DNA from: Bacteroidota bacterium
GTDB lineage: Bacteria > Bacteroidota > Bacteroidia > B-17B0 > Aurantibacillaceae
Reading direction: 5' to 3'
Assembly (NCBI GenBank): GCA_019638705.1
Contig: JAHBTI010000016.1
Coordinates: 4,177-68,176, forward strand
DNA: 64,000 nucleotides
Positions 5,817-26,739 of the stretch are shown here, in pieces. The position numbers and the translations under genes were made by a program. The notes below the pieces were generated by a model. That model was not told the DNA's origin and did no database searches. It saw only the letters and a program-made list of their open reading frames with translations. The first letter of the stretch is position 1. Every line of letters begins with the position of its first letter.

Positions 5817-6884
5817 ATGGACGAAAATGAAAGAAACGAATTGCGACAAAAAATTCAAGAGGTTTTGACTGATGGACAAACAAAACTTTCAGAAGTAACT
5901 GCTATTGCTGACGGTGCAAAACAAAAGGAAACTGAACTAAATACGTTTCACACAAGAATTATTGAACTAAAAGCAGCGGCAGAAACTAATTCTAATTCAT
6001 TAGCCGAAACGCTAAACAATGCAAATACTGTAAAATCACAAATTGACGAATTGCATCGCGTAGCGACAGAAGCAAAAAATGCTATTGACGTTTTTCATCA
6101 AAACAGTAACGCGAAAAACGATGAAATCAATAATTACTACAACATTTTTCAAAACCTAAAACAACAAGTTGAGAACCCCGAATTTGGGTTAGCACAGACA
6201 CTTGCTAAAGCAACAGAATTTTTCGGACATATTTCAAAAACAAATACAGATGCAACCGCTGCAAAAGACGAAATTCTTACAAACAAGGTTAAATCAGACG
6301 GACTGCTTAACGAAACAAATCAGTTAAAAGACAATATTGCTAACAACTTAACTGAAAGTGAAAGACTAAAAACTGAAATTGGAAAAATTCTTGATTTAGT
6401 CAGAGATACTGGACTTGCTAATTCGTTTGACAAAAGGCGAAAACGTTCTCAATGGAGTAGTCTTTTTGCTTTAGGAGTTATTATTCTTGGTGTAATCATA
6501 AGTGTAATTACCATAAGTAAAGTGTTTCTATCAGAGGAAGGACAAAATTTATTTAGTGCAATACAAAATGACTATATTAAATTCTTACTTCGCTTGACAT
6601 TGACAGCACCCGGTGTTTTTACAGCTTGGTTTGGTGCTGCTCAATATTCTAAAGAACGATACTTTTTAGAGCAATATGAGTTTAAAACTGCTGCTGCATT
6701 AGCTTTGGAAAATTATACAAAGTTGCTCAAAGACAATTATGCAGGAAAAGAAGAAGAAATTTTTAAATTGAATTTAGAGTTAATTCGTTCGGTTTACAAA
6801 GAACCAATATTTATTAAACCTAAGACGAGTATTTTTGCAAGAGTAAAAGAACCGACAACAAAAATTAAAGCTGAAAAAAGCTGA
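5817..6884 (+). CDS. Hypothetical protein: long N-terminal coiled coil plus C-terminal transmembrane helices
   Basis: 355 aa, heptad-rich N-terminal 200 aa, hydrophobic segments near residues 215-275, AT-rich. Confidence 0.75.
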   Translation: MDENERNELRQKIQEVLTDGQTKLSEVTAIADGAKQKETELNTFHTRIIELKAAAETNSNSLAETLNNANTVKSQIDELHRVATEAKNAIDVFHQNSNAKNDEINNYYNIFQNLKQQVENPEFGLAQTLAKATEFFGHISKTNTDATAAKDEILTNKVKSDGLLNETNQLKDNIANNLTESERLKTEIGKILDLVRDTGLANSFDKRRKRSQWSSLFALGVIILGVIISVITISKVFLSEEGQNLFSAIQNDYIKFLLRLTLTAPGVFTAWFGAAQYSKERYFLEQYEFKTAAALALENYTKLLKDNYAGKEEEIFKLNLELIRSVYKEPIFIKPKTSIFARVKEPTTKIKAEKS

Positions 6885-7047: not shown

Positions 7048-7080
7048 TCTTTGGACACTGCAATTCACAACAGACAAAAT

Positions 7081-8916
7081 ATGACGACAGAACATATTGA
7101 AAAAATATTTACCGACTACCTTAAAACTGACAAAACGCAATATGCGATTTTGCTAAATGGCAGTTGGGGGTGCGGCAAAACATACTTTTGGAAGCATTCT
7201 TTAGAGGAAATTGCTAAAAAAAATGATTTCAAAACAATTTATGTATCGCTAAACGGAATTGGCAAAATAGATGACCTTGACCATCAACTTTTCGTAAAAT
7301 TATTGCCTTTTATTAGCAATCAAGAAAACAAAGTAATAAAAAATGCAACAAATTTTTTGGGTAATGTATTAAACAAACTAAGCAATCATTATCTCAATAC
7401 AAGTATATCGGATATTTTCAAAGGTGTAAGTATTGATACTTTTAACTTTTCAAAATACATAATTTGTTTTGACGACTTGGAACGTTGTCAAATTCCTGTC
7501 AAAGAAGTGTTAGGGTTCATCAATAATTTAGTTGAACATAAGAACTTAAAAACAATAATTCTTGCTCACGAACACGAAATTGAAAAGAAAGAAGAATACA
7601 AACGCATTAAAGAAAAAGTTGTTGGTCGTGATTTAAAATTTGAACTTGATATTCGTTCAACATTGCCTAATCTGTTTAATAAATACAAAGACAATTCCGA
7701 TTTTCACAATTTCTTATTGTCAGCTCAAAAAAACGTTATTACCGACATTTTAGTTGAATACAAACAAGACAACCTTAGAATAATAAGTTTCTATTTAGAT
7801 ATTTTGGAAAGGATTTTTCCAATATTGAAAAATGTTGATTCAAAATATGTTCAAGAAACAATCTTATTTTCTGCCATAATTATTATTGAATATAAAAATG
7901 GTGGATTGACTTCTACGGACTATAAGGATTTTAAAGGTATTGACGATATTAACGAACATTATTACTCATTGAACCTTGCAAGGACAATGAGAAAATCTGA
8001 GAAGGAAGAAACAGAAAGAAAAAAATCCTATGCAGAAATTTTTTACGAAAAATATTTAGATAAGAGAGTTAATACATACTTCTTCTATCCATCAATATAT
8101 TCTTTCATTCTTTCAGGCTACTTAAATCAAACTGAGTTAGAAACCGAAATCAAAAAACGTTATCCAGAAGTCATTTCTAAAGAAATTCAAGATTTCAGAA
8201 CCTTAATTCATTATAAATTTCGTGAACTATCTGACGAAGATTTTAAAAGGCTCACAAAAGATGTTTTGCAATACGCCAAAGAAGGCAAATATTCCATTTA
8301 CGACTATGTTCAAATTGCGCAATTCTTTTACTTTTTCTCTAACAATAAACTGATTACTGAAAGCAAGGAAGATATTGATAAAATAATCAATGACGGGCTT
8401 GAAATTGCGAAAGCACGAAAACAAATCAATGACAAAGTTCTTGAAAATCTTTTACATTTTGGAGACGATAATCCTCATGTAACAGACATAAAGAAACTTG
8501 TCAAAGAAATTCACAACGAAATTAAAAAAGAAGAATACGTTGCAAATAGCAACGAACTTATTGACTGTTTAGTAAATAAAGACGAGTTTGCGTTGGCAGC
8601 AATTTTTGAGAAGCACAAATTCTCAGAAGAACTCTTCCAATACGCAGATGACAAACTATTGTTTGATACAATTTTGAAAGTTTCTAATAAACAATTATTC
8701 AACTTTACCGAATTACTAAGACGCCGATACGAAATTGGAAACATTGGTGAGTTTTTGTTTGAGGACACAGGCTGTTTGAATAAAGTAAAAATGGGGTTAT
8801 CTGACTACCTTGACAAAAGTGAAAACATTGAGCAACCGAGAAAGTTCTTGTTTGCTACATTAGAAAAGACTTTAATGTTAGCTATTCAATACTTGAATGA
8901 CACAAGAAAAAAATAA
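7081..8916 (+). CDS. KAP-family P-loop NTPase
   Basis: YAILLNGSWGCGKT (Walker A), ICFDDLERC (Walker B), EKVVGR motif; ATG 7081 preferred over TTG 7051. Confidence 0.8.
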   Translation: MTTEHIEKIFTDYLKTDKTQYAILLNGSWGCGKTYFWKHSLEEIAKKNDFKTIYVSLNGIGKIDDLDHQLFVKLLPFISNQENKVIKNATNFLGNVLNKLSNHYLNTSISDIFKGVSIDTFNFSKYIICFDDLERCQIPVKEVLGFINNLVEHKNLKTIILAHEHEIEKKEEYKRIKEKVVGRDLKFELDIRSTLPNLFNKYKDNSDFHNFLLSAQKNVITDILVEYKQDNLRIISFYLDILERIFPILKNVDSKYVQETILFSAIIIIEYKNGGLTSTDYKDFKGIDDINEHYYSLNLARTMRKSEKEETERKKSYAEIFYEKYLDKRVNTYFFYPSIYSFILSGYLNQTELETEIKKRYPEVISKEIQDFRTLIHYKFRELSDEDFKRLTKDVLQYAKEGKYSIYDYVQIAQFFYFFSNNKLITESKEDIDKIINDGLEIAKARKQINDKVLENLLHFGDDNPHVTDIKKLVKEIHNEIKKEEYVANSNELIDCLVNKDEFALAAIFEKHKFSEELFQYADDKLLFDTILKVSNKQLFNFTELLRRRYEIGNIGEFLFEDTGCLNKVKMGLSDYLDKSENIEQPRKFLFATLEKTLMLAIQYLNDTRKK

Positions 8917-9453: not shown

Positions 9454-10344
9454 ATGAAACCTTACCTTACTTATAATGGCTCGTATGGCAATGATACGAT
9501 TGAACTTGAACGCGGCTTGGTAAACATCATTTTATTGCAAGATTTACTTACACAGCATAATAACAAAATTGAACCGCACGCGCACCCCAATTTGTATCAA
9601 TTGGTTGTAATTGAAGAAGGCGAGGGCGAAATAATATTGGGAGAAAAAACATATCAAATTCAAGGTCATTCTTTAGTAAGCATTCCAAAAAACACTGCAC
9701 ATTCATTTATGTTAGAAACAGACACAAATGGTTATGTTTTTAGTTTTTCTCATCATGCACTTGAAAGCCTTTTGAAAAAAGACGATAAACTATTGCGGGT
9801 GCTTGACTGCGCAAATGTAACGGATATTCAGGCAAAGCAAGAATTGCACAATACTATTTGTGATATTGTTAAAAGATGTGCAGCAGAATATGATGAAAAT
9901 TCAGAGGAACGGGGTTTGGCTCTTAAAAGTTTGAGTGAACAGTTATTTTTGGCATTACACCGACTATACAAAGATAATGGTCATATAGACAATGTTGATA
10001 TTAATGCAGAAAAAAAACTATTACAGAAGTTTGATTTACTAATTAAAGAATTTCATTCACCTCATGTCAAATTACACGAATACTGTCGCGAGCTTTCATT
10101 AACTCCAAGACGACTTAGTTATCTTTGTTATAAACATAACAACAAAAGTCCTAAACAAATAATTTTAGAACGCCTTGTGGAGTTAATTCAAAATGCTTTG
10201 TTAAACAAAAAGGAAAGCATTAAAAAAATATCATTAGATTTTCACTACAAAAATGCAAGCCATTTTGATAGGTTGTTTAAAAAAATTATAGGAATAAGCC
10301 CTCGTCAATACCGAATTGAGCATGGTATAGAAGAAATCGCATAA
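9454..10344 (+). CDS. AraC-family transcriptional regulator (cupin sensor plus HTH)
   Basis: N-terminal EPHAHPNLYQL cupin motif; C-terminal IKKISLDFHYKNASHFDRLFKKIIGISPRQYR. Confidence 0.9.
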   Translation: MKPYLTYNGSYGNDTIELERGLVNIILLQDLLTQHNNKIEPHAHPNLYQLVVIEEGEGEIILGEKTYQIQGHSLVSIPKNTAHSFMLETDTNGYVFSFSHHALESLLKKDDKLLRVLDCANVTDIQAKQELHNTICDIVKRCAAEYDENSEERGLALKSLSEQLFLALHRLYKDNGHIDNVDINAEKKLLQKFDLLIKEFHSPHVKLHEYCRELSLTPRRLSYLCYKHNNKSPKQIILERLVELIQNALLNKKESIKKISLDFHYKNASHFDRLFKKIIGISPRQYRIEHGIEEIA

Positions 10345-10478: not shown

Positions 10479-11903
10479 ATGGAAAAGAAAATTATTTTTA
10501 GTGCAGCATTAATAGCAATTGCTGCAATTACCGCAAACGCGCAGGAAACACAACATTGGACAACCGACCTGATGACTGTGGGGGCTGCTGACGAAGCCAA
10601 ACTTGGCACAGAAAATGAAAAACCGTTGAATTTTTACACCAAAGGAGAAAAGCGCACGGTAATTGACACCAACGGAAAATTTACACTATTAAGATATGCC
10701 AACAGTAATATTCCTGACAACTGGGGAAATCGCCGATTATATGTCAATAAATTTGGTGTTATAACCACATCTCCTCATGGAGGCGGAAACGGAGGATATA
10801 CAGAAGGTGATGTTTATTGTACTTGTGATGAGCCTTGTAATGCTATGATTAGTGGGGGTATATCTCCTACAAGTCCTTGTCTGAATAACACCCCACAAGC
10901 ATGGTTTGAAGGTGGTAATATTCTTTATACTGACCATTGTGGTGGTTCTTCAAACATTATAGGCACTTGTAACAGCTATGACTTTGTGATGAAAGCAAAC
11001 GATACAAGCGCAATTTTTCTGAAAACTGACGGAAGAGTAAACATTGGTGCAAATAATGATATAGCTAACAATGCTACAACCGCAGCACAGCTTGACATAA
11101 GCGGAAAATCAGTAAACCAAAACAGTGGACTAAGAGACCATTTAAGAATTTACGGAGATAATGACGGCAATATAGAATCTACCACAGGTATTAATTTATA
11201 CTTTGAGGGAGCAGATAACGATTTTCGCATTCATCGCGGCAACGTGGGCAGCGGCACAAGCGTATTAAGCATACTTGGAACTAATAGCGGTGGCGGTGTG
11301 TATATAAATGACTTTGTAAATGTGGCTGCTGATGCAGTTATAAGCGGTAATACAGCTATTGGCGGCGATGCAAGTGTAAACGGTAACGTGGGTATTGGTG
11401 GCGATGTGGGTATTGACGGCAATATTGATGTTATTGGCGCGGCAAGCATTGCAGGCAACTTGAATGTTAATAATAGATTTAGTGTGGCAAGCAGCACGGG
11501 TTATACCGAAATAAAAGTGTATTCCCCATTAGGAATGCCAACGCCTTACGGCGCAACCAATCCAAGAGTTTTAACCGTCAGAGATATGAATGCCAGCAAG
11601 GATTTATTTGCCGTAACATCAGCAGGCATGGTATATGCCCGTGAAGTAGAAGTTAATTTAACAACAAATTTCCCCGATTATGTATTTGATAAAGACTACA
11701 AGCTGCCGTCCATTCCCGAAATGGCAAAATACATTGAGAAACACAAACGATTGCAAGGTTTTGAAAAAGGCGAGTATTATGAGAAAAACGGCATTAACGT
11801 AAACCAAATGTTTGTGAAACAACAGGAAAAAATTGAAGAATTGACACTTTACATTATTCAGTTAGAAAAACGACTAAGCGCGTTAGAGAAAGGAAAGAAA
11901 TGA
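10479..11903 (+). CDS. Secreted spike/tail-fibre-like protein with hexapeptide beta-repeats and a C-terminal S74-chaperone-like/coiled-coil domain
   Basis: Signal peptide; GNTAIG-GDASVN-GNVGIG-GDVGID-GNIDVI-GAASIA-GNLNVN repeats; FPDYVFDKDYKL...EKIEELTLYIIQLEKRL end. Confidence 0.65.
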   Translation: MEKKIIFSAALIAIAAITANAQETQHWTTDLMTVGAADEAKLGTENEKPLNFYTKGEKRTVIDTNGKFTLLRYANSNIPDNWGNRRLYVNKFGVITTSPHGGGNGGYTEGDVYCTCDEPCNAMISGGISPTSPCLNNTPQAWFEGGNILYTDHCGGSSNIIGTCNSYDFVMKANDTSAIFLKTDGRVNIGANNDIANNATTAAQLDISGKSVNQNSGLRDHLRIYGDNDGNIESTTGINLYFEGADNDFRIHRGNVGSGTSVLSILGTNSGGGVYINDFVNVAADAVISGNTAIGGDASVNGNVGIGGDVGIDGNIDVIGAASIAGNLNVNNRFSVASSTGYTEIKVYSPLGMPTPYGATNPRVLTVRDMNASKDLFAVTSAGMVYAREVEVNLTTNFPDYVFDKDYKLPSIPEMAKYIEKHKRLQGFEKGEYYEKNGINVNQMFVKQQEKIEELTLYIIQLEKRLSALEKGKK

Positions 11904-11955
11904 GAAGTTTGATTTTAGAATTTTAAGATGACCTGAAAATAAAAAAACAAGAAAT

Positions 11956-12381
11956 ATGAAAGCACTATTTTCCATTATCGTTTTTGTACTGATGTTATTG
12001 TTTTGCAATACAACAAAAGCCCAAGAAAACAGCCTTGTGTTAAGTTATGACAACGGCGGCAACATGACACAAAGAAAAGTGCAAGTGATGTTTGGCGCAA
12101 GATTTGCCGCACCTGATATACAACAAAAAGATTCCTTACCCCCGATGAAAATATATCCAAATCCTACAAATGATTATGTAAACATTGAGGGAAAACTGCC
12201 TGAAAACGTGCGAAAAGCAGAATTACTTATCAGCACAACAGACGGGCGTATTTTGAAAACAGATGTTTATACAGGCGAAGCAAAACAAATTTCTGTTTAC
12301 AATTTAGCCAAAGGAATGTATCTGCTTGAGTTTATTTATTCCAAAAAACAGAGAGACACTTATAAAATTATTGTGAACTGA
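11956..12381 (+). CDS. Small T9SS type A sorting-domain protein
   Basis: Signal peptide, LSYDNGGNMTQR, then KIYPNPT...LAKGMYLL...TYKIIVN sorting domain. Confidence 0.8.
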   Translation: MKALFSIIVFVLMLLFCNTTKAQENSLVLSYDNGGNMTQRKVQVMFGARFAAPDIQQKDSLPPMKIYPNPTNDYVNIEGKLPENVRKAELLISTTDGRILKTDVYTGEAKQISVYNLAKGMYLLEFIYSKKQRDTYKIIVN

Positions 12382-12428
12382 ATGATAGGTTAAAAGTCAA
12401 AATTTAAAAGCAACCAAATTTTAAGAGT

Positions 12429-15400
12429 ATGGAAAAAGCATTTAGTTTTATCGCCTTGTTTTGTTTGTCTTGCCTAAATATGCAAGCGCAAAACCCGAGC
12501 AATTACACATTCCCGAACCCGACACCCAACCCGAATAATTTAACTGCCAATACTTACACAAGGGCAACGCAAAGTATTAACCTGAAAAACGGGTTTTCTT
12601 TCAACCCTGCGGCATCGCAAAACGGAAATAACCTTTTAAACTTAAACATCAACTCTTATCCAAACTATGTAAATAACAATTACACTAATCCTGCCGACAA
12701 TCAAAATTACTATTCTGTAAATCCTAATTTAGAAGTGGGTGTTACACAGGGCGCACACCAAGTGGACAACATCGGTGGATTTAATTATAATATTCCAATC
12801 GTTTGTTCGCCCGGCAGAGCAGGTTTAGAACCAAACTTGTCAGTAGTGTATAACAGCAACGGCGGCAACGGTTGGTTGGGTTTGGGCTTTAATTTAAGCG
12901 GCATTTCTGCCATTACCCGCACGGGAAAAACCGTGTTATACGACGGTTTAAACAGCGGGATTAATTTTAACAGTAATGATGTTTATGCTTTAGACGGCTC
13001 TCGCTTATTTATAAAATCAGGAACATACGGACAAAACGGCGCAACGTACAGAACAGAGGTAGAAAATTACGCCGTTATTACCTCACATGGCTCACAAGGC
13101 AGCGGAGCACAATACTTTACAGTTACCACACCCGACGGCATGACAATGGAGTATGGCAACAATGCTTCGGCAAAGAGTGTAGATGTAAATAATACCGATG
13201 TGTTGGCTTGGTACATAAACAAAGTGTATGATGTGTATGGAAATTACATGGAATATTTTTATACGAACAGCAACGGTGAATTGCTGATTACAAAAATAGA
13301 ATACACTAAGCACAGCAGTGTAAACTTATACAACAAAATAGAGTTTAATTACATAGAACGCAGCGACAATGCTCCGCTTTATGTGGCAGGCAAAGAGTTT
13401 AGGAATAAACATTTGTTACAAAGCATAGTTAGCAAAGACATAAACGGCAATGCAGTAAGAAAATATTTTTTTGAGTATCAATATCAGTACGGCAGCTTGC
13501 TGAACAAAGTAACCGAAGTGGACGCAAACGGCAATCAATTAAATCCTACGTTTTTTGAGTGGAATGATGAAACGTTGAGTTGGAACTGGAAGTTTGGAGC
13601 TGTAAGCACAGCTACTGATATTGTGCGAACTACTGCTGCCGACATAAATGGTGATGGCAAGCAAGATTTAATATTGACAAGGGATTACGGTGCAGACCAC
13701 TATGTGGAAACTAAATTAAACGTTGGGGGAAGTTTTTCTCACATCAGCGGTTTGCTGTTAAGTGCCAGTTCTGCCAGTGCAGAAATATTTGCCATATATG
13801 TTTTTGATGAAGACGATGACGGCATAGACGAAGTGTTTTACATTATGGGACAGCCCATAACCACACCCAATCATTATGAATGGGAAATTAAAAAACTTAA
13901 AAACACCAATGGCACGTTAAGCATTGTACAGGAAGAACCCTTACACACAGATACAGGTGCAGTAGTGTGTTGGGGCGGTTTATTTTGGAATTTTCAGAAA
14001 AGTGTTACTTCGGGGTGTTTTTACGCTAAGCAAGATGTAACGGGCGACAATCTGAATGATGTAATTATGTCAGACGGGTTTAATATTAAACTTACTCCGT
14101 CCAATCAACAGGCTGCCATTACTTTACCTGTTTCAAACTTAGTGAAAATTGGTTTAGGCGACTTTAACGGCGATGGAGTTTTGGATATTTATACAGTAAA
14201 ATTCCCCTCTACTCCGGTTAGCCCTTCTCAAAGCCAATTGCTTGATATTTTAGTTTATTCTTATAATGAAGCAAACAATACCTTAAACCAAATTGTATCT
14301 ACGCAGGTAAACATTGGTTCTAATCCCTATTATACAACTTGGGGAGCAATTGGTTTTGCAGCTGCCAATGCTGCTAATGCTTCCAAATGTATTGGCTTTG
14401 GCGATGTAAACGGCGATGGGAAAACCGATATATTTTATGTAAACTACAACAACGGCACAAGCACTTGTAAACTCATCTGGCTGCGCAGTAACGGCGTTGC
14501 GTTTATGACCGCTCCGCAAGATGAAATTTCATTAACCACGGCAACAACATTCAATAATCTTGAAGCCAATTTTTCTGTGGCAGATGTGAATAATGACGGC
14601 AAATCAGACATTATGGTTAGTAGTTTTGATACTGTTTATGTAGGTCATGCAAGTTATTCTTATTTTCCCTCTATTGGAACTGCCCTTGTAAACGACAATA
14701 TGCCAACTGCGCCTGTTTGGGGAAGAAGGCTAAGCACTATGGGTGATTTTGACGGCGACGGAGCTATGGATTTTGTGTTTCAAGATGACGCAACCGACAG
14801 TTATATTCTCTATCACGGTTTTGACGAAGACAACAAAAAAATGGTGAAACGCATTTTTAACATCAGAGATGAGATAAACATTACCTATAATTTTTTGCCA
14901 AGTGCAGCCAACTGCCAAAAAACAACTCCGGCGTATGGCAATAATAATTATGCCAATTTTAAAATCATTAAACCCGCCCTGTATGCGGTTTCTTCTGTGG
15001 TTGCCAACGGGCAAACCACAAGCTACGGATACAGCAACGGCATTTTGCACAGGCAAGGGCGGGGCTTTATAGGCTTTGAACGCTTGTTTGTGCGCAACGA
15101 AGATAAATCTTCGGGTGCGGAAAAAGCGGGTATGTATTCAGGCTTTGAATATAATCACATTAATGATGCCGTAACTTGGAGTGAAAGCATGAGCACCTAT
15201 TTATCAAACAGCAATATGTTTAGCATTAACCATGCTAAAACTTCAAGCTACTCTTCCTCGTTGCCAGGTTTTTCTTATGTAAACGGCAGCGGTTATCTGC
15301 GCCGCCTGAGCAGCAACCAAACCATATCAAAAAATTACCTCAGCTCCACGCATAACCTGCAAACTGTTACTTACGACCCTAACAACGCAGGTTCGCCCCT

Positions 15401-18400
15401 GCAAACGGTTTTTCAAAACCGCACATGGCTGCAATTCGGGATACTGAACAGCACACAAACAGACTATGTTTATCAAACAATTGCCGTAAACGGCAAAACC
15501 TGTTACAAACCCCAGCAGGTAACAGAACAGATAAGCGCAGGCAGCGTTTCTACGTTTATTCACACATACAGTTATGATGGGCAGGGGCGTTTAACCACAG
15601 AAGTTAAAAACTCAAACATTGCGGGGCAAGCCGTTACCACCGCCTATTCTAATTTTAACGCTTTTGGCGCACCGCAAAACATTTCGGTTTCTGCTCCCAA
15701 TGTGGCTTCGCGCAGCTCGCAGGTGCAATACGACAACACAGGGCGGTTTATAACCAAAAGCACCAATGCCATTGGCGATTTTGCAGAATTTGTGTACGAA
15801 CCGGGTTTGGGAAATAAAATTCAGGAAAAAGATGCTTCGGGTTTAATTACAAATTATAAATACGACGGACTTGGGCGAGCCATTTGGGTAAAGTTGCCAA
15901 ACGGCGCGGTAAATACGGTAAAATATGAGTGGTATCCTTATAATTCATTGTACGGCACTAAAGTAACCACCCAAGCAGAAAACGCACCAAGCACATGGAA
16001 ATACTATGACCGCAACGGCAATATGATATTGGCACAACAGCAAGATTTTGGCGGCAATACAAAAACGGCAAATTTCACCTACAATATTTTAAATCAACCG
16101 CTCACGGCGCAGGATATGCACTACAGCTCACAAAGCAATTACAACAGCATAACATACAGCTATGATGATTATATGCGCCCTTTAACAAAAACAAAAAGCA
16201 TTGTCGGACAAAACACGGTAATAAATTATTCATACAACAATTTAAGTAACAACAGCACTTACAATAAAGGCTTTGTGCAAATGAGCGCGCCTACCGCCAC
16301 AAACGGCATTACCTATTCCGTAAAACGCGAAAACAACTCGGCAGGGCAAACAGACAAAGTAATAAACACAAGCAACGGCACAACGCACAGTGCCTCTTAT
16401 AATTTTAATGAGTTTGGGCAGCCGACCTATATAAGCAACGATTATGCAGGCGCAGGGCAATACGGCATTACCATGAGCTACGATGCGCTTGGCAGGCAAA
16501 GCGGTTTAAACGACCCTAACGCGGGCAACTGCACATATCAGTACAACGCCTTTGGTGAACTGACACAGCAAATTACACCCAACGGCACATACAATATGCA
16601 ATATGATTTGCTGGGGCGTGTAACACAAAAAACAGACGGTGCAAACAACACCTACACTTACCTGTACGAAACAAGCAACAGCGGCAAAGGGCAACTGAAA
16701 CAAATTACAGGTGCAAACATGACTACCGAGTTTAAATACGATGACTTTAGCCGCCTTACCGAAAAGAAAGAAACCTTAACGGCAGACAACAAAGTTTTTA
16801 AAAGCAATTTTACTTACAACAAATACGGGCAGCTTGTAAATTACACTTACCCAAGCGGTTTTGTTACTAAAAATGAGTACGACAATATTGGCAACCTGAT
16901 AAAAATAAAAAACGGCAACACCACTATTTGGCAATTAAACACTATGGCTGCACCCGGCATAGTAAGCAATTACAAATACAACAACGGAAATTTAAGCAAC
17001 AGCATTGTTTACGATAATAAGTTAAATCTGTCGGAAATACACTATGGTAATTTGAAAACACACTGGTATGACATAGAACACAAAACCAACAACCTGCAAA
17101 CCCGTACTGTTTTTGATAACAATTATGCTAATCAGGAAATTTTTAAGTACGATGAATTTGACCGCCTTACTAAAGTGCAGTATTATAATATCAATACCAT
17201 GTACGACAAAGCTACCATGACGTATAATCAAAACGGCAACTTTAACCAAAAGAGCGATTGCGGTGATTATGTGTATGGCAACAGCAATGCTCCCTACCAA
17301 CTCACGGCAATACAAAATCCCGTAACAGCAAACATCAGTTTAAACACGCTGAATGTAACCTACAACACATTTAGAAAAGTAAGCCAAATTGTAGAGGCAG
17401 ACCCTAACGGCACTAAGCAGTTTGACTTTGTGTATGGCAACGATGAGCAGCGTGTAAAAATGGCGTACAGCGTAGGTGGCAGCACAATTTATACACGGTA
17501 TTATGCTGACGGCTGCGACAGGCAGGAAGACAATGTAAACAACACATACAAAGAGTGGACATATATTTACGCCCCAACAGGCTTATGTGCCGTGTATTAC
17601 AGCGGCACATCTCTCCCCCCTGTGGGGGGAGGCGGAGGGGGGCTTTACTACGTTGCTCCCGACCATTTGGGCAGCCCTGTAATGCTGATTAACAGCAACG
17701 GACAAATAGCAGAAGAATACAGCTTTGACGCTTGGGGGCGCAGGCGCAATCCGCAGGATTGGAACGATTATGTAAACACAGGTTTCCCCCCTTTGGGGGG
17801 TGCAGGGGGGCTTCTAATACGCGGCTACACCATGCACGAAATGCTTGATGAAGTTGGCATAATAAACATGAACGGGCGCATTTACGACCCTGTGCTTGGG
17901 CGTTTTTTGCAACCTGATAATTATGTGCAAAGCCCTGACAATTTGCAGAATTTCAATAGGTATGGGTATTGTTTAAATAATCCGCTGAAATATACTGACC
18001 CGAGTGGGGAGGTGATTGGTGTTGCAGAAATTTTGGCAGCAACAATAGGCGGAGTGATGAATGTTGCTGCAAATTGGGACGCAATAAAAAATTCCAAAAG
18101 TTCATTTGGGGCAGGAGTTGCTTACTTTGGAATAGGAGCAGTGAGCGGAGTTGTAGGTTTGTACACATTTGGAGCAGGTGGCGGCGCATTAGCTGCGCTT
18201 GGTAATGGATTAATGCAACAACAAAGTGGAGGGCAAATTGTACAAAACATGGTTGTAGGTGCTGTATCAGGTCTTACAAGCTATGGTATTGCTTCGGGGC
18301 TTGGCTCTATAAACTATGGGGGAATTACCAATAATTTTGCAAGATACGCCGCCAAAGCAGGTATAAGTTTTGGTGTAGGTTTTTCATCAGGTTTTGGTGG

Positions 18401-18977
18401 AAATTTGACGGGACAGGCATTGGCGTGGCAATTTGGCTGGCAGGATAGAATTAATGGGAAAGCAGTGCTGACGAGCGGTTTAACAGGAGGTAGTATTGCT
18501 ATGGGTATTTCTATTGGATATTCTGCTTATGATTATGCAACGTGGGATAGGTATGACCCAACTGTTCAAGCAGAAATGCTAAACAAGGATGGGTGCAATA
18601 TCGAATATATGAGTAAAGAAAAATGGGATGCCTTATCGGATGATGTTAAAGGAGGCAGGAATTACAAAACAACAGGAGGAATAACCACTGACGGTGTTTC
18701 CTACATCACCGATTATGGACTAAGCAATAGGCAATTTGCCAATTCGGTTTATTACCATGAAACCACCCATTATAATCAGATTCATGACAATCCTCCAGGA
18801 TTTATAAGTATACGCCATGATGAACAAAATGCATACTTGAGCCAAAGTTCATCGTTCAATAATTACACTCCTACTAGATACATTAAATATACCAACAACG
18901 GTTATTCAGGGAATGGTGGTAGAGGGCTCGTTTATAAGTCTAATTTTAGTAATAACCTGTTTAATATATTTAGATAA
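12429..18977 (+). CDS. RHS/YD polymorphic toxin with SpvB-like and FG-GAP (TcB-like) N-terminus and an HExxH metallopeptidase-like tip
   Basis: Signal peptide; SpvB-like GGFNYNIPI...PNLSVVYNSNGGNGWLGLG; five DxNxDGxxD repeats; YD repeats; core end GRFLQPD...NPLKYTDPSG; Gly-rich hydrophobic linker; HETTH and downstream E. Confidence 0.9.
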   Translation: MEKAFSFIALFCLSCLNMQAQNPSNYTFPNPTPNPNNLTANTYTRATQSINLKNGFSFNPAASQNGNNLLNLNINSYPNYVNNNYTNPADNQNYYSVNPNLEVGVTQGAHQVDNIGGFNYNIPIVCSPGRAGLEPNLSVVYNSNGGNGWLGLGFNLSGISAITRTGKTVLYDGLNSGINFNSNDVYALDGSRLFIKSGTYGQNGATYRTEVENYAVITSHGSQGSGAQYFTVTTPDGMTMEYGNNASAKSVDVNNTDVLAWYINKVYDVYGNYMEYFYTNSNGELLITKIEYTKHSSVNLYNKIEFNYIERSDNAPLYVAGKEFRNKHLLQSIVSKDINGNAVRKYFFEYQYQYGSLLNKVTEVDANGNQLNPTFFEWNDETLSWNWKFGAVSTATDIVRTTAADINGDGKQDLILTRDYGADHYVETKLNVGGSFSHISGLLLSASSASAEIFAIYVFDEDDDGIDEVFYIMGQPITTPNHYEWEIKKLKNTNGTLSIVQEEPLHTDTGAVVCWGGLFWNFQKSVTSGCFYAKQDVTGDNLNDVIMSDGFNIKLTPSNQQAAITLPVSNLVKIGLGDFNGDGVLDIYTVKFPSTPVSPSQSQLLDILVYSYNEANNTLNQIVSTQVNIGSNPYYTTWGAIGFAAANAANASKCIGFGDVNGDGKTDIFYVNYNNGTSTCKLIWLRSNGVAFMTAPQDEISLTTATTFNNLEANFSVADVNNDGKSDIMVSSFDTVYVGHASYSYFPSIGTALVNDNMPTAPVWGRRLSTMGDFDGDGAMDFVFQDDATDSYILYHGFDEDNKKMVKRIFNIRDEINITYNFLPSAANCQKTTPAYGNNNYANFKIIKPALYAVSSVVANGQTTSYGYSNGILHRQGRGFIGFERLFVRNEDKSSGAEKAGMYSGFEYNHINDAVTWSESMSTYLSNSNMFSINHAKTSSYSSSLPGFSYVNGSGYLRRLSSNQTISKNYLSSTHNLQTVTYDPNNAGSPLQTVFQNRTWLQFGILNSTQTDYVYQTIAVNGKTCYKPQQVTEQISAGSVSTFIHTYSYDGQGRLTTEVKNSNIAGQAVTTAYSNFNAFGAPQNISVSAPNVASRSSQVQYDNTGRFITKSTNAIGDFAEFVYEPGLGNKIQEKDASGLITNYKYDGLGRAIWVKLPNGAVNTVKYEWYPYNSLYGTKVTTQAENAPSTWKYYDRNGNMILAQQQDFGGNTKTANFTYNILNQPLTAQDMHYSSQSNYNSITYSYDDYMRPLTKTKSIVGQNTVINYSYNNLSNNSTYNKGFVQMSAPTATNGITYSVKRENNSAGQTDKVINTSNGTTHSASYNFNEFGQPTYISNDYAGAGQYGITMSYDALGRQSGLNDPNAGNCTYQYNAFGELTQQITPNGTYNMQYDLLGRVTQKTDGANNTYTYLYETSNSGKGQLKQITGANMTTEFKYDDFSRLTEKKETLTADNKVFKSNFTYNKYGQLVNYTYPSGFVTKNEYDNIGNLIKIKNGNTTIWQLNTMAAPGIVSNYKYNNGNLSNSIVYDNKLNLSEIHYGNLKTHWYDIEHKTNNLQTRTVFDNNYANQEIFKYDEFDRLTKVQYYNINTMYDKATMTYNQNGNFNQKSDCGDYVYGNSNAPYQLTAIQNPVTANISLNTLNVTYNTFRKVSQIVEADPNGTKQFDFVYGNDEQRVKMAYSVGGSTIYTRYYADGCDRQEDNVNNTYKEWTYIYAPTGLCAVYYSGTSLPPVGGGGGGLYYVAPDHLGSPVMLINSNGQIAEEYSFDAWGRRRNPQDWNDYVNTGFPPLGGAGGLLIRGYTMHEMLDEVGIINMNGRIYDPVLGRFLQPDNYVQSPDNLQNFNRYGYCLNNPLKYTDPSGEVIGVAEILAATIGGVMNVAANWDAIKNSKSSFGAGVAYFGIGAVSGVVGLYTFGAGGGALAALGNGLMQQQSGGQIVQNMVVGAVSGLTSYGIASGLGSINYGGITNNFARYAAKAGISFGVGFSSGFGGNLTGQALAWQFGWQDRINGKAVLTSGLTGGSIAMGISIGYSAYDYATWDRYDPTVQAEMLNKDGCNIEYMSKEKWDALSDDVKGGRNYKTTGGITTDGVSYITDYGLSNRQFANSVYYHETTHYNQIHDNPPGFISIRHDEQNAYLSQSSSFNNYTPTRYIKYTNNGYSGNGGRGLVYKSNFSNNLFNIFR
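17613..17642 (+). repeat. GC-rich palindromic element in frame inside the RHS gene (encodes LPPVGGGGGG)
   Basis: CTCCCCCC-TGT-GGGGGGAG followed by a G run. Confidence 0.6.
17783..17811 (+). repeat. Second GC-rich palindromic element in frame inside the RHS gene (encodes FPPLGGAGG)
   Basis: CCCCCC-TTT-GGGGGG-TGCA-GGGGGGC. Confidence 0.6.
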
Positions 18978-18982
18978 AAAAG

Positions 18983-19498
18983 ATGGTAAGAATTTGCACC
19001 TATACTATACTATTTATTAATATATTCATTAATAATTTATTTGCACAAATATCGCTTAAACTAGATACTTATACAATTGAATACGACAAGGATAATGTTG
19101 CGACGGGTGTTCAGATAATTTATCAATCCATAGTGGAAAAAGATACAGTACTAAAACTATATTTAACAAAGGAAGAGTTAATTGAGTTTAAAAGCGATAA
19201 AAAAATTCGAAGCGAAAGTTTATTTGATATAATTACAGTCAATGTAGTTCCATTTACCAAAAACAACATTCAAAGTATTATTATGCGACCAGCATATGTA
19301 ATGACTAAATTGAATAAAGAAAGGGTTAAATTGAATAAAGGAGAATTCTTCAAAGTAGTTTTAACTATTTCATTGAGAAGTTTTCAAAATGGAATAAATA
19401 AAGAGTTTGTTTCGCCAAATGAAATCAAGAGCCTTAACATAGAAATACTTAACAACAACAAGAGGGTTATGGATAAAAACTATATAAATATCCATTGA
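18983..19498 (+). CDS. Putative cognate immunity protein of the RHS toxin
   Basis: Starts 5 bp after the toxin stop, AT-rich, signal-peptide-like N-terminus; function inferred from position. Confidence 0.6.
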   Translation: MVRICTYTILFINIFINNLFAQISLKLDTYTIEYDKDNVATGVQIIYQSIVEKDTVLKLYLTKEELIEFKSDKKIRSESLFDIITVNVVPFTKNNIQSIIMRPAYVMTKLNKERVKLNKGEFFKVVLTISLRSFQNGINKEFVSPNEIKSLNIEILNNNKRVMDKNYINIH

Positions 19499-19675: not shown

Positions 19676-19827
19676 ATGCTGTAATGGTAAATAAAGTCAA
19701 AGTTTGGCCTAATGGTAACTATAAAATATATTTTTCAGACCCAAGTCCAGTTCGGAAAGCACCATACTCGAGTTATAAAATTCCATTCGGTGCTGGTTTT
19801 TGGACTTTTTATTTACGCAAAAACTAA
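19675..19827 (+). pseudogene. Orphan 3' stub of a toxin gene (papain/C39-like peptidase tip)
   Basis: HAVMVNKVKVWPNGNYKIYFSDPSP...YLRKN*, no start of its own, begins at the REP end; HAV...Y..DP pattern. Confidence 0.5.
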
Positions 19828-19832
19828 TAAAA

Positions 19833-20534
19833 ATGATAAAGCGATTACAGCGTTTCTTTTGGATTATTTTAATTCAGCAATTATCTGCGCAAGAAGATAA
19901 AATCGTATTTTATTCTAACAATAAAGGGGATTTTGTCTGTATTCATAAAGATACTATTATGTACAAAATTCATAATAATGATGATTTTGCTTCATTTTGG
20001 ATTGGAAAAGCAATATTTAAAGAAGATAACAAAACCATTTGTTTAAAAAGAATGTTTCCTTTGAAGCACTTAATGACTTCTATAGTTAAGCATAAAAGTG
20101 ATAGTAGCGGATTTAGTATTTTATATAACGATAGCTCGCCGTTGTTTGGAAATGTTGAGGTATTAGATAATAAAAATAAAAAAATACATTTGGACGGACA
20201 CTTTAATAAAAATGGTTTTTTTCTGATAAATGAAGAATTATCAAGAAAAATAAATAATCTTGACATTACAGTATCTATAACATATTTAAGTTTTTTTTCG
20301 GAAAATAAATTGACATTTCAAAACGGATTTAATTACGAAATAAGAAGCAGAGTATGTTACCCCTATTACATAATAGAGGATAAAAAAAAGGTAGAGTTCA
20401 AAATATTAAATGAAAAACAGGTAAGTGTGAAATATGTTGTGAAACATAATAGAAAATACAACGAGCAATTTGAGGTCGTTTTGAATAAGAATGAAAATAT
20501 TATTAGGAGTTGCGAAACACTACCTTTTTGGTAG
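19833..20534 (+). CDS. Putative orphan immunity protein (secreted)
   Basis: ATG 19833, 5 bp after the stub stop; signal peptide MIKRLQRFFWIILIQQLSAQ; very AT-rich. Confidence 0.6.
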   Translation: MIKRLQRFFWIILIQQLSAQEDKIVFYSNNKGDFVCIHKDTIMYKIHNNDDFASFWIGKAIFKEDNKTICLKRMFPLKHLMTSIVKHKSDSSGFSILYNDSSPLFGNVEVLDNKNKKIHLDGHFNKNGFFLINEELSRKINNLDITVSITYLSFFSENKLTFQNGFNYEIRSRVCYPYYIIEDKKKVEFKILNEKQVSVKYVVKHNRKYNEQFEVVLNKNENIIRSCETLPFW

Positions 20535-20914: not shown

Positions 20915-20962
20915 AATGATACAAACTTTAAAATAAAAGATTATTTTTGAAGTTGAATAGTA

Positions 20963-21532
20963 ATGAAACAGGGCGAAAAACAAACCATTAAAACAGACAG
21001 AGCGTATTTTTTAACGCTAACGGTTGTTGGTTGGATAGATGTTTTTTCGCGGCAAAATCACAGAAATGCTTTTATTAATTCTTTAAAATATTGTCAGCAA
21101 AATAAAGGTTTGATTGTGTTTGCTTATGTAATGATGACAAACCACATACATTTAATGGTAAACACACACGAACCGTTTTTATTAAAAGATGTAATTAGAG
21201 ATTTGAAAAAATATACCTCTAAACAAATAATTGAGCAAATTATTAATCAACCTGAAAGCCGAAGATAATGGCTATTACAACTTTTGGAATTAGAAACAAA
21301 AGATAAACAGGGCAATAAAAATCATAAATTTTGGCAAGAAGGAAATCATGCCATAGAATTGTATAATGAAAAGTTTGTTTGGGATAAAATAAATTACATA
21401 CATAATAACCCTGTGGAAGCAGGTTATGTGAGAAAGTCGTATGAATGGATTTACTCTTCGGCGAGTAATTATTACGGTATGGAAAGCATAATAGAAGTAG
21501 AATGTTTGCAACAAAGATTAAATACAATTTAG
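20963..21532 (+). pseudogene. REP-associated tyrosine transposase (RAYT / Y1 HUH) with one in-frame TAA at 21266-21268
   Basis: YFLTLT, HUH motif NHIHL, KFWQ, catalytic YIHNNPV, YSSA. The two ORF-track pieces (20963-21268, 21284-21532) share one frame: ESRR*WLL. Confidence 0.85.
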
Positions 21533-21624: not shown

Positions 21625-22038
21625 ATGAAAATATTTAAACATATTATAATTGGAATGGCATATTTTTTTATGTTCTCTCAAGCAGATTGCAAAAAAAAAG
21701 AAAATTGCCACAGTAAAATTATTATACAGAACAAATCAAATACCCCTGTTATCTGCGGCGAAAAACGTTATGACGGTTCTAATAATTGTAATATAGTGGG
21801 ACAAATATTGAAATCTAATGATAATTATGAATTAGTTTTTGGACAGTTTTCTTGTTGGGAAAACACTTTGTCGGGAGGAAAAACTAAGGATATTTATATT
21901 ATAGATACCGCTACATATAATAACCCAAATGTTTTTTATTCATGTGATTCTATGGAATATAAAAACACCATACTGAAACACTTTATATTAACGTTAGACG
22001 ATTTAAAGAAGAATAATTTTACAATTGCATATCCATGA
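21625..22038 (+). CDS. Putative orphan immunity lipoprotein
   Basis: Hydrophobic leader then ADC-KKKENC; AT-rich; follows a toxin-like stub. Confidence 0.6.
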   Translation: MKIFKHIIIGMAYFFMFSQADCKKKENCHSKIIIQNKSNTPVICGEKRYDGSNNCNIVGQILKSNDNYELVFGQFSCWENTLSGGKTKDIYIIDTATYNNPNVFYSCDSMEYKNTILKHFILTLDDLKKNNFTIAYP

Positions 22039-22331
22039 AAAAATCAGTAATTAGAATTTTTGTTTGTGTTATACTGTGTGGTTGCGGTAAAAAACCAACA
22101 GCAAATTTCACTTGGTCGCCACAAAATCCAAAAGCAGGGCAAGAAATGCAGTTTACTAATACTTCAACCGATGCAAAAAAGTATGATTGGAATTTGGGTA
22201 ATATGAAGATAAGTTCAGAAAAAGACCCAAAAAACACTTACGATAATGCTGGTGAATACATTATTGATTTAACAGCGCATAATGGTGTGAAGTCAAGTAC
22301 AAAAACAGTTACTATTACCGTAATTCCATAA
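22035..22331 (+). CDS. PKD-domain lipoprotein
   Basis: Lipobox LCGC; PTANFTWS...FTNTS...YDWNLGN...P.NTY...GEY.I.LT; ATGA overlap with the previous gene. Confidence 0.8.
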   Translation: MKKSVIRIFVCVILCGCGKKPTANFTWSPQNPKAGQEMQFTNTSTDAKKYDWNLGNMKISSEKDPKNTYDNAGEYIIDLTAHNGVKSSTKTVTITVIP

Positions 22332-25140: not shown

Positions 25141-26739
25141 ATGAACAACTTAATTTTATTTGAACAATTTGCCAAAGGCAAAACACAACTTCAAAAACGA
25201 AGCAACAACTGTGTTATTTACACCCGCGTTTCAGGCAAAGAACAAGAACTTGGTTACAGCTTGGAAACACAGCGCAAAACCTGTGAAGATTACGCCAAAA
25301 AACACCAATACGCCGTTATGGGCGTATTTGGTGGAACGTATGAAAGCGCAAAAACAGATGAACGAAAAGAATTTAACCGAATGCTTGCTTTTGTAAAAAA
25401 GAGCCGAGAAAAAATTTCATACATCATCGTTTACAGCGTGGACAGATTTTCGCGTTCGGGTGCAAATGCCATTTACATCAAAGACCAATTACGCGCACAA
25501 GGTATTTTTCTTGTTGCCGTAACACAACCTGCTGACACTTCCACATCAAGCGGCGACTTTCAGCAAAACATTCAAATCATTTTTTCGGAGTACGATAATA
25601 ATTTGCGCAGAGAAAAATGTATGGCAGGCACTCGTGAAGCTCTGATGAAAGGCGAATGGTGTCAAAGACCGCCTTATGGTTACGACATCATGAAAGAAAA
25701 CGGCAAACGCAAAATTGTTTTAAACGAAAAAGGAAAATTTTTGCAAAAAGCATTTTATTGGAAAGCAAACGAACGCCTCACGCACACCGCCATATCCGAA
25801 CGTTTGGAAACATTCGGCGTGAAAATTCCAGATAAACGTTTATCGGGTTATTTCCGAAATCCTTTTTATTGCGGGCTTATGGCACACTCCTCATTAAAGG
25901 GACAAGTTGTTGAGGGTAATCATGAAAAAATGATTAGCAAAGAAATCTTTTTAAAAGTAAACGACCTTTTAAGAGAAAACAAACACGGCTATTCTTCCAA
26001 CGAAGTAGAAGAGGGAACGCCGCTCAAACGTTTTCTGCGCTGCGACCATTGCGGAGCGTATATGAGAGGGTATATCGTTAGAAAGAAAAATCTTCCTTAT
26101 TACAAATGCAACACCTTAGGCTGCGGTAACAACAAAAGCGCGAGAGATTTACATAGCATTTTTGAAAAAACATTAAGTTGGTTTAGTTTGGTTAGCAATG
26201 CTTCTATAAGAAAATTTGTAGCCAAACAAATTGCAACAAAATACAACCGAGAACACAAAGAAAAAGACGAGAGCAAAGAAACAATCAAACGTCAAATTAC
26301 AGAGCTTCAAAAGAAACAAGAACGATTGGAAGAACGCCTTATAAATGAAGAACTAACCCTTGAGTTGTACAATAAATTTTCGGGAAAGTTCAGAGAGGAA
26401 ATAATAGCCTTAGAGAAAAATTTGCTGCAAAATCAAAAACGAGTGTCTAACCTTGAACATTGTGTAAATATCGTGTTGGATTTTGCCGCCAACCTCCCGA
26501 AATCATGGACTTTGATGGGATTTAAAGACAAACAACTGCTTCAATTTTTGTTGTTTCCGGAGGGTATTCGCTACAGCAAGAAAAACAACGAGTGTCGTAC
26601 CACCAAAATAAATTCGGTGTTTTCTTACATCGCCCATTTGGTAAGGGATATGGGACAAATAAAAAGCGGGGCATCAAAATTTTTAATTGATTGCCCCGCG
26701 TTGGTACCCCGAGCCGGAGTCGAACCGGCATGCCAATGA
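25141..26739 (+). CDS. Large serine recombinase (integrase)
   Basis: YTRVS catalytic motif, VDRFSR, PPYGY recombinase domain, zinc ribbon RCDHCG...YYKCNTLGC, coiled coil; last 11 codons come from the tRNA antisense strand. Confidence 0.92.
   Translation: MNNLILFEQFAKGKTQLQKRSNNCVIYTRVSGKEQELGYSLETQRKTCEDYAKKHQYAVMGVFGGTYESAKTDERKEFNRMLAFVKKSREKISYIIVYSVDRFSRSGANAIYIKDQLRAQGIFLVAVTQPADTSTSSGDFQQNIQIIFSEYDNNLRREKCMAGTREALMKGEWCQRPPYGYDIMKENGKRKIVLNEKGKFLQKAFYWKANERLTHTAISERLETFGVKIPDKRLSGYFRNPFYCGLMAHSSLKGQVVEGNHEKMISKEIFLKVNDLLRENKHGYSSNEVEEGTPLKRFLRCDHCGAYMRGYIVRKKNLPYYKCNTLGCGNNKSARDLHSIFEKTLSWFSLVSNASIRKFVAKQIATKYNREHKEKDESKETIKRQITELQKKQERLEERLINEELTLELYNKFSGKFREEIIALEKNLLQNQKRVSNLEHCVNIVLDFAANLPKSWTLMGFKDKQLLQFLLFPEGIRYSKKNNECRTTKINSVFSYIAHLVRDMGQIKSGASKFLIDCPALVPRAGVEPACQ

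Follow-up and report, generated by a model that had tools for sequence, protein, structure and literature searches.

How does a toxin cocoon of the Rhs or Tc type, once handed to the Sec pathway, leave a Bacteroidota cell that has neither TcA nor a type VI secretion system (T6SS)? This question is raised by a locus of the Bacteroidota genome assembly GCA_019638705.1 (contig JAHBTI010000016.1), within an analyzed stretch of 64,000 nucleotides (contig positions 4,177 to 68,176; hereafter the window, in which positions are counted from its first letter). Four co-oriented genes on the + strand lie within 10479-19498. They encode (i) a fibre-like protein of 474 aa (P0001, 10479-11903); (ii) a mini-protein of 141 aa with the features of a type IX secretion system (T9SS) cargo (P0002, 11956-12381); (iii) an RHS protein of 2182 aa (P0003, 12429-18977); and (iv) a candidate immunity protein of 171 aa (P0004, 18983-19498). 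In our view, the comparisons reported below give good support to a functional connection of the sorting-domain protein with the RHS protein, which has no such tag. Judged from sequence and gene order, the mini-protein may couple the RHS protein to the T9SS, either by exporting it or by fixing it at the surface during export, a reading to which we assign a probability of roughly 0.45.

The genes and their products were taken from the list of open reading frames (ORFs) and their translations. From P0001 to P0004, the intergenic gaps measure 52, 47, and 5 bp. In all four N-termini, a charged n-region is followed by a hydrophobic core and an A-Q end, as is typical of Bacteroidota, and they were called by eye from the translations as Sec signal peptides. 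An earlier sequence-only reading had described the first three genes as a co-oriented triad with signal peptides, and the ORFs, their coordinates, and their common strand agree with this description.

The shell part of P0003 (12429-17996, + strand) begins with the signal peptide (residues 1-21) and extends to a DPSGE motif. Pfam matches comprise SpvB (residues 116-356, E = 1.9e-18), FG-GAP and FG-GAP_3 (the latter with E = 5e-15) over a propeller at about residues 400-730, TcdB_toxin_midN (residues 771-904, E = 8.4e-9), and RHS_repeat (E = 1.7e-23); the Rhs core was detected with the NCBIfam model Rhs_assc_core (residues 1799-1860, E = 1.7e-14). A TcB-type SpvB/propeller/TcdB middle is in this way combined with a TcC-type RHS shell, core, and variable tip, and P0003 is best explained as a fused TcB/TcC-type cocoon. 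Across eight homologues, invariant residues are found up to D1857, P1858, and G1860. When P0003 was compared with seven homologues, the identity per 100-residue window ranged from about 12% to 77%, with peaks over the SpvB region and over the Rhs core; it was 51-70% in the final window ahead of DPSGE (residue 1857) and below 35% in nearly all windows beyond. Por_Secre_tail had no match in P0003 in the Pfam and NCBIfam searches, so that the earlier view of an SpvB/FG-GAP/YD shell without a T9SS sorting domain of its own was upheld. Indeed, P0003 could hardly bear such a domain in cis, because its C-terminus is the putative encapsulated toxin and its N-terminus the Sec signal.

The sorting domain is found in P0002. 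Following a signal peptide (residues 1-23, called by eye), this protein consists of a YD-type hairpin (residues 26-43, nt 12031-12084), a flexible linker (residues 44-62), and a type-A sorting domain (residues 63-141, nt 12142-12378), all encoded on the + strand. The C-terminal domain (CTD) matches Por_Secre_tail (residues 66-140, E = 9.2e-12, 45.5 bits with a cut-off of 27) and TIGR04183 (38 bits with a cut-off of 23), i.e. it scores above both curated cut-offs, which together with the Sec signal seen by eye and a T9SS in the genome marks P0002 as a predicted type-A cargo protein. An AlphaFold2 (AF2) model of P0002, calculated from a 17-sequence alignment (mean pLDDT 80), folds residues 2-17 into a signal helix and 26-31/37-43 into a beta-hairpin, leaves the linker at 43-57 disordered, and ends in a CTD sandwich (63-141) with pLDDT above 88. 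In the hairpin, which contains the YD-like motif quoted in the sequence-only reading, the relatives of P0002 show no or almost no variation at Y31, D32, G35, and R40, and these residues are conserved across orders. RHS_repeat was the second commonest Pfam match among the 17 members of the mini-protein family (7 of 17, all weak, best E = 0.028). The description of P0002 as a YD-like element plus a T9SS sorting domain, already given in the sequence-only reading, is consistent with all of these data. Large proteins that seemed to carry a YD hairpin and CTD fused in cis (G162, G150, and others) proved to be ordinary CTD cargo. No consistent docking motif was detected when the N-termini of RHS proteins with and without a mini-protein partner were compared.

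The genome assembly is 99.9% complete, and it contains SprA, PorV, and GldN as well as about 130 sorting-domain genes. P0003 is its single SpvB/RHS gene. Searches of the whole genome for VipB (TssC), Phage_GPD (VgrG), and PAAR returned no match, and the positive controls for these searches responded. TcA_TcB_BD was not found in the whole genome either; the identical search detects it in four canonical genomes of the phylum. VRP1 had no match in the whole genome, in a search that was also silent in the control. The absence of TcA and T6SS, as claimed earlier from the window, is in accordance with these negative marker searches.

To what extent the genes travel together was examined in the neighbourhoods of ten fibre relatives from other genomes. 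At eight of these loci (L001, L003, L157-L160, L171, L172), the fibre gene was accompanied by genes for a Por_Secre_tail protein of 125-148 aa and an SpvB-RHS protein of 2154-2225 aa. One of the remaining two loci had fibre and RHS only, and the other had a fibre gene and then two sorting-domain proteins. Flanking genes were unrelated among the eight triad loci. A small ORF followed the RHS gene at seven of the eight, i.e. at every locus extending that far. The same triad was found by a separate route in a member of the Paludibacteraceae (L045), resulting in a total of nine further triads.

For an overview of the phylum, 401 genomes were sampled; 52 of them had SpvB matches, and 72 long SpvB genes were taken with their upstream DNA. 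Sorting-domain calls were made with our own profile and checked against Pfam on a subset. The survey splits the SpvB proteins of the phylum into those of canonical Tc loci with TcA (SpvB E < 1e-76, mostly about 2450-2750 aa, n = 13) and those encoded by TcA-less RHS genes (n = 59). At 29 of the 59 non-canonical genes, a sorting-domain gene ends directly upstream. In the genome under study, the corresponding baseline is 2.8% of genes, so that the enrichment is 17-fold. In 28 of the 29 cases, the upstream gene stops 0-170 bp ahead of the first Met of the RHS ORF or overlaps this ORF; at locus L101, the distance is 184-712 bp. These 29 loci belong to 17 genomes and 9 genera (18 genomes and 10 genera when locus L117 is added). 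SprA was present in all 18 genomes with a CTD gene in an RHS cassette, and in 312 of 401 overall.

Mini-proteins of the YD type occur at 21 of the 59 loci. At 20 of them the gene is directly upstream of the RHS gene, and at L117 a fibre gene lies between the two (small-fibre-RHS). The gaps between mini-protein and RHS genes are short, often 3-15 bp. The remaining adjacent sorting-domain partners are larger (418-788 aa) and include those of a class of RHS proteins with 3300-3860 aa; Pfam confirmed the CTD in five larger partners. One to three fibre genes are located upstream at 12 of the 59 loci, seven of which are without a sorting-domain gene. Altogether, 37 of the 59 TcA-less RHS genes have T9SS-cargo and/or fibre partners. 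In contrast, a sorting-domain or fibre gene was upstream of none of the 13 canonical SpvB genes, and TcA_TcB_BD was located on the same contig in all four canonical SpvB genomes tested.

In a reverse survey, in which nine candidates per genome were scored and which was therefore not exhaustive, all 12 full-length matches to the mini-protein outside the genome under study adjoined an SpvB-RHS gene already found. Six further partial matches are generic CTD proteins. A first scan for related loci with the mini-protein alignment had yielded only 6 true members among 80 loci, and one of its patterns proved to be a common CTD motif. The sequence-only reading had made co-occurrence of the three genes a point on which it would stand or fall; the triad does recur amid unrelated flanks, and the mini-protein is found only beside SpvB-RHS genes. 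It is this recurrence, together with the restriction of the mini-protein to SpvB-RHS loci, the presence of a sole RHS gene in the genome, and a T9SS in the absence of TcA and T6SS markers, on which we base the well-supported functional link.

Some variants of these loci were also noted. RHS proteins of the 3300-3860-aa class (L098, L101, L103-L106) follow a sorting-domain protein of 465-656 aa without other recognized domains, with a gap of 1-42 bp at five of the six loci. In high-GC members (L148, L149, L152), a Skp/OmpH-like gene and one small gene lie between a protein of 762-814 aa with a CTD-like end and the RHS protein; SkpA is a component of the extended T9SS translocon (PMC10994853). 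At the canonical Tc loci (L085-L097; genomes G331, G261, G084, G309), which encode the SpvB proteins of about 2450-2750 aa, TcA_TcB_BD ORFs of 1297-3408 aa (four of five longer than 3000 aa) are found 16-18 kb off on the same contig. No SprA was detected in two of the four canonical Tc genomes tested.

The fibre-like protein P0001 consists of a signal peptide (residues 1-22), a variable N-terminal and middle part, a hexapeptide-like stretch (about 270-340), and a conserved C-terminal domain (about 340-474). Hexapeptide similarity of the LpxD type is weak (residues 274-333, E = 1.4e-3). The C-terminal domain of about 135 residues was modelled with pLDDT 75-91 and ends in a long helix (441-473); it has 1230 relatives, none with a Pfam family. 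With the profile of this family, two MAT fibres of Bdellovibrio were matched, Bd2133 (E = 2.5e-6) and Bd3182 (E = 9.9e-5). The monomer model of P0001 reached a pLDDT of 65, and its Foldseek hits were non-significant and mostly trimeric fibres. The Peptidase_S74 chaperone had no Pfam or PHROG match in P0001, and the SDxxxK motif does not occur in its sequence. P0001 had been proposed to be a spike with hexapeptide repeats and a chaperone-like end, serving in targeting or puncture. The weak hexapeptide stretch and the long C-terminal helix survive from this proposal, and the chaperone-like end does not. Puncture lost its basis, as no VgrG- or gp5-like fold was found, and targeting appears plausible.

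Five genes of the genome under study contain the fibre C-terminal domain. The four paralogues are located at C34:33187-37265, C21:34432-38216, C1:34325-38154, and C9:4559-8809 (L167-L170), of which the C9 copy seems split across two frames. Each precedes at least one Pfam-confirmed sorting-domain protein, three of them directly and the C21 copy after an ORF for a 211-aa lipoprotein. The passengers next to the paralogues are of unknown type or are PGAP1/DUF676 lipase-like, PKD, and beta-propeller proteins. At all 16 places examined, the fibre family adjoins T9SS cargo or RHS, which links this family, as yet unannotated, more broadly to T9SS cargo. Fibre genes are absent from about two thirds of the surveyed mini-protein/RHS pairs and also partner other T9SS cargo. 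Of the triad proposed as a unit, its recurrence in other genomes is confirmed, but the fibre is not a fixed member. In Mantel tests on ten cassettes, which are confounded by shared genome ancestry, divergence correlated with that of the RHS core for the mini-protein (r = 0.68, p = 0.007) and for the fibre C-terminal domain (r = 0.70, p = 0.02), whereas the N-terminal part of the fibre did not track the RHS core (r = 0.14). This difference between the two parts would fit a fibre whose docking end is conserved and whose outer end can be exchanged.

At the other end of the cassette, the DPSGE cleavage motif (residues 1857-1861) and the polymorphic toxin tip (residues 1862-2182) are encoded at 17997-18974 (+ strand). 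The tip comprises Gly/Ala-rich hydrophobic segments at about 1862-2040, followed by a globular end in which an HExxHxxQ motif (H2110) is invariant. Identity of P0003 to its homologues collapses past residue ~1870. For the globular part, just four relatives were found among 1.84 billion representative proteins, one of them being the end of another RHS fragment; the tip had no match in Pfam, PDB, or PHROG. A conserved shell, a PxxxxDPxG boundary, and non-homologous C-terminal tips among relatives are the characteristics of a polymorphic toxin, an activity that we presume for this tip as well. P0004 begins 5 bp past the RHS stop codon, carries an N-terminal signal peptide, and has no match in Pfam, NCBIfam, PDB, or PHROG. 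The ORFs 3′ of the RHS gene in homologous cassettes are not homologous to P0004, as expected of toxin/immunity pairs. We regard P0004 as a candidate immunity protein on account of its position, signal peptide, and variability. A variable, exported immunity-like gene after the toxin tip points to action in the periplasm or envelope, and the most likely targets appear to be other bacteria. Downstream of P0004, three more small ORFs on the + strand (19779-20534, 21625-22038, 22035-22331) have signal- or lipoprotein-type N-termini. They had no Pfam match and may be spare immunity genes.

Taken as a whole, the cassette genes very likely represent a functional unit. Our model of its operation assumes that Sec exports the RHS cocoon to the periplasm, with the C-terminal toxin enclosed and cut at DPSGE. 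P0002 would then probably supply the sorting domain in trans, in that its YD-type hairpin binds the RHS shell and its type-A CTD engages PorV/SprA. The cocoon would be taken across the outer membrane or, alternatively, be fixed to it. P0001 probably builds a trimeric fibre at the surface; the conserved C-terminal domain may dock to a cassette partner or to the cell, and the variable N-terminal part may bind targets. A hairpin on a tether joined to a sorting domain would be the simplest way of connecting an RHS protein to the T9SS.

Several points weigh against such a coupling. Of the 59 RHS genes, 22 lack both a CTD and a fibre gene upstream and 7 are preceded by a fibre gene only, hence the CTD partner is not obligatory for this RHS class; furthermore, the surveyed genomes are related, so that these and the other survey counts overstate independence. 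The hairpin of P0002 was modelled at moderate confidence only (pLDDT 55-64). When the profiles of the mini-protein and RHS families were aligned by hhalign to locate the repeat that the hairpin might mimic, no match was obtained; thus, apart from the YD motif, nothing in the sequences supports a completion of the shell by the hairpin. In its folded state, a BC-type cocoon has about the width of the SprA lumen or a greater one. Type-A CTDs are normally removed after transport, which would leave only a peptide of ~40 residues. Finally, we know of no T9SS cargo that travels non-covalently on another protein.

Passage of a very large folded cocoon through SprA would be avoided if the cocoon left the cell by outer-membrane vesicles (OMVs) or lysis, and if the surface-fixed hairpin and the fibre then held it on the cell or vesicle. 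Synteny fits this explanation equally well as export in trans, the Rhs protein PGN_1818 of Porphyromonas gingivalis was detected in OMV proteomes (PMC13744359), and type-A CTD cargo is described as usually cleaved and surface-attached (PMC8545088). The RHS protein, however, carries a Sec signal and shows none of the lipoprotein or barrel features by which it could reach the outer leaflet, cargo in the vesicle lumen would not meet a surface anchor, and there are no vesicle or lysis genes in the cassette. We regard such docking as unlikely. A different role of the hairpin, by analogy to secreted anti-sigma factors, would be to cap, in the periplasm, a beta-edge left open in the RHS shell and to prevent aggregation or premature opening, until export by the T9SS removes the cap and so couples RHS maturation to the T9SS. 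The tiny size of P0002, its flexible tether and strong CTD, its link to RHS genes wherever it is found, and the tight gene spacing, which suggests matched stoichiometry, would all be compatible with a cap. It is nevertheless an improbable solution, since it leaves the passage of the RHS protein over the outer membrane unexplained and since, to our knowledge, it has no precedent in T9SS biology.

The combination of SpvB, propeller, TcdB_midN, and RHS is also the architecture of a Tc BC subcomplex, and canonical Tc loci with TcA occur in the phylum. P0003 could hence be a Tc-like toxin against eukaryotes (protists, nematodes, insects) that uses an unrecognized translocator, with neighbours that are adhesins unrelated to export. 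The variable exported small gene right after the tip, however, resembles antibacterial toxin/immunity pairs, and TcA_TcB_BD was not found in the genome although the positive control worked. In addition, P0003 has a Sec signal, which Tc BC proteins, as far as we know, do not have, and a toxin directed at eukaryotes seems to us a distinctly unlikely explanation. Least of all do we expect that the genes lack a functional link, as would be the case for co-transfer on mobile islands or for the decaying remnant of an ancestral RHS-CTD gene. In favour of this explanation is the low-GC island around the cassette, with its serine recombinase and REP/RAYT debris. Yet in several orders the mini-protein gene has retained an intact signal peptide, a complete CTD, and the invariant residues of the hairpin, it lies close to the RHS gene, the frequency of the arrangement exceeds the baseline 17-fold, and 12 of 12 mini-protein matches adjoin an RHS gene. 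This explanation, already disfavoured by the surveys, is very improbable.

Coupling of the RHS protein to the T9SS by the mini-protein can be set beside several known systems. The Tc BC proteins (Photorhabdus TcdB2-TccC3, Yersinia YenB-YenC2) share with P0003 the SpvB domain, the FG-GAP propeller, TcdB_toxin_midN, the RHS shell, the DPxG core, and a variable toxin. P0003 differs in being one fused chain with a Sec signal, in a genome in which no TcA was found; its partners are a mini T9SS cargo and a fibre, and an immunity-like gene follows the toxin. At the canonical Tc loci of the phylum, in turn, TcA is encoded 16-18 kb away, and CTD or fibre partners are lacking. T6SS Rhs effectors (PAAR-Rhs proteins such as RhsA and Tse15) likewise consist of an RHS cocoon with an autoproteolytic core and a polymorphic toxin at the C-terminus, and their immunity gene follows downstream, in the position of the candidate P0004. 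In contrast, no PAAR, VgrG, or TssC was found in the genome under study, and the N-terminal half of P0003 starts with a Sec signal and is of the SpvB/propeller type.

Closest among published statements is one on P. gingivalis, in which the T9SS cargo gene PGN_1817 lies directly 5′ of the large Rhs gene PGN_1818 (PMC6775972). During surface translocation, expression of the Rhs region rises along with that of T9SS genes, and a mechanistic link was proposed by the authors; the study merely remarks on this link and does not analyze the cargo protein, a hairpin, or a fibre (PMC6775972). PGN_1818 also occurs in OMV proteomes (PMC13744359). TANFOR toxins, for which T9SS export was hypothesized from neighbourhoods enriched in T9SS substrates, resemble P0003 in having a Sec signal, a C-terminal toxin domain, and no CTD of their own; they possess an N-terminal TANFOR domain instead of the SpvB/RHS shell, and their partners are large SprB-type cargo rather than a hairpin mini-protein (PMC7073777). 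In the SprB-SprF systems (type-B CTD, PorP-like partners), a dedicated accessory gene also lies beside the cargo it serves, but there the partners are outer-membrane barrels for cargo with its own CTD, whereas here the CTD resides on the partner and is missing from the large protein (PMC9143113). The Bdellovibrio MAT fibres, Sec-signal fibre proteins that include the two matches of the family profile, are comparable to P0001 (PMC10769870). In the P0001 family, the polarity is reversed (the C-terminal part is conserved and the N-terminal part varies), S74 is lacking, and there is a link to T9SS cargo. Our literature search found no experimental study on the hairpin mini-protein/RHS module or on the fibre family.

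The surroundings of the cassette point to mobility. In 2-kb windows, GC content is mostly 31-39% between 6 and 26 kb and 42% over the RHS shell (14-18 kb), with flanks of about 40-45%. The low-GC region around the cassette also contains a KAP NTPase, REP/RAYT debris, and a large serine recombinase (25141-26739, + strand; Pfam Resolvase E = 8.5e-27, Recombinase, Zn_ribbon_recom). The position of the recombinase at the far end of the low-GC block suggests a mobile island. The locus is best explained as a self-contained, horizontally mobile polymorphic-toxin cassette of T9SS-bearing Bacteroidota. Genes for the KAP-family P-loop NTPase and a DUF7121-like protein (7051-8916 and 5817-6884, + strand) are located at the low-GC end of the island. 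The frame of a RAYT/IS200-like transposase (20957-21532) is broken into two + strand ORFs (20957-21268 and 21269-21532), and at L082 a similar RAYT gene sits between the RHS gene and an orphan mini YD-CTD gene. Directly 5′ of the cassette lies a gene for an AraC-family protein with cupin and HTH_18 domains (9454-10344, + strand; Pfam HTH_18 E = 1.3e-16, AraC_binding E = 9.3e-9), a possible regulator of the cassette. At L001, L157, and L173, a divergent pair encoding a LamG-domain histidine kinase and a LytTR response regulator is found upstream of the fibre gene; in the window, the AraC-family gene takes the position that this pair has in the three genomes. Counts of promoters and terminators did not exceed the shuffled expectation, with promoter models that were not designed for Bacteroidota.

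The cassette suggests a new export route for RHS toxins, putatively through the T9SS. In the literature found, the T9SS has so far been described only for cargo with its own sorting domain. A wider picture may be drawn, in which T9SS sorting domains act in trans, hairpin-CTD mini-proteins carry or anchor tag-less RHS cocoons, the fibre family of more than 1200 members is a general surface partner of T9SS cargo, and T9SS-based, contact-dependent toxin delivery in Bacteroidota takes the role that TcA or the T6SS has elsewhere; as a whole, this picture is tentative and rather doubtful. The cassette is small, conserved, and genetically separable, so that the idea is directly testable. If it is true, a sorting domain lent by a hairpin adaptor of 40 residues would be a new principle for the T9SS, and the T9SS would gain a role in bacterial antagonism.

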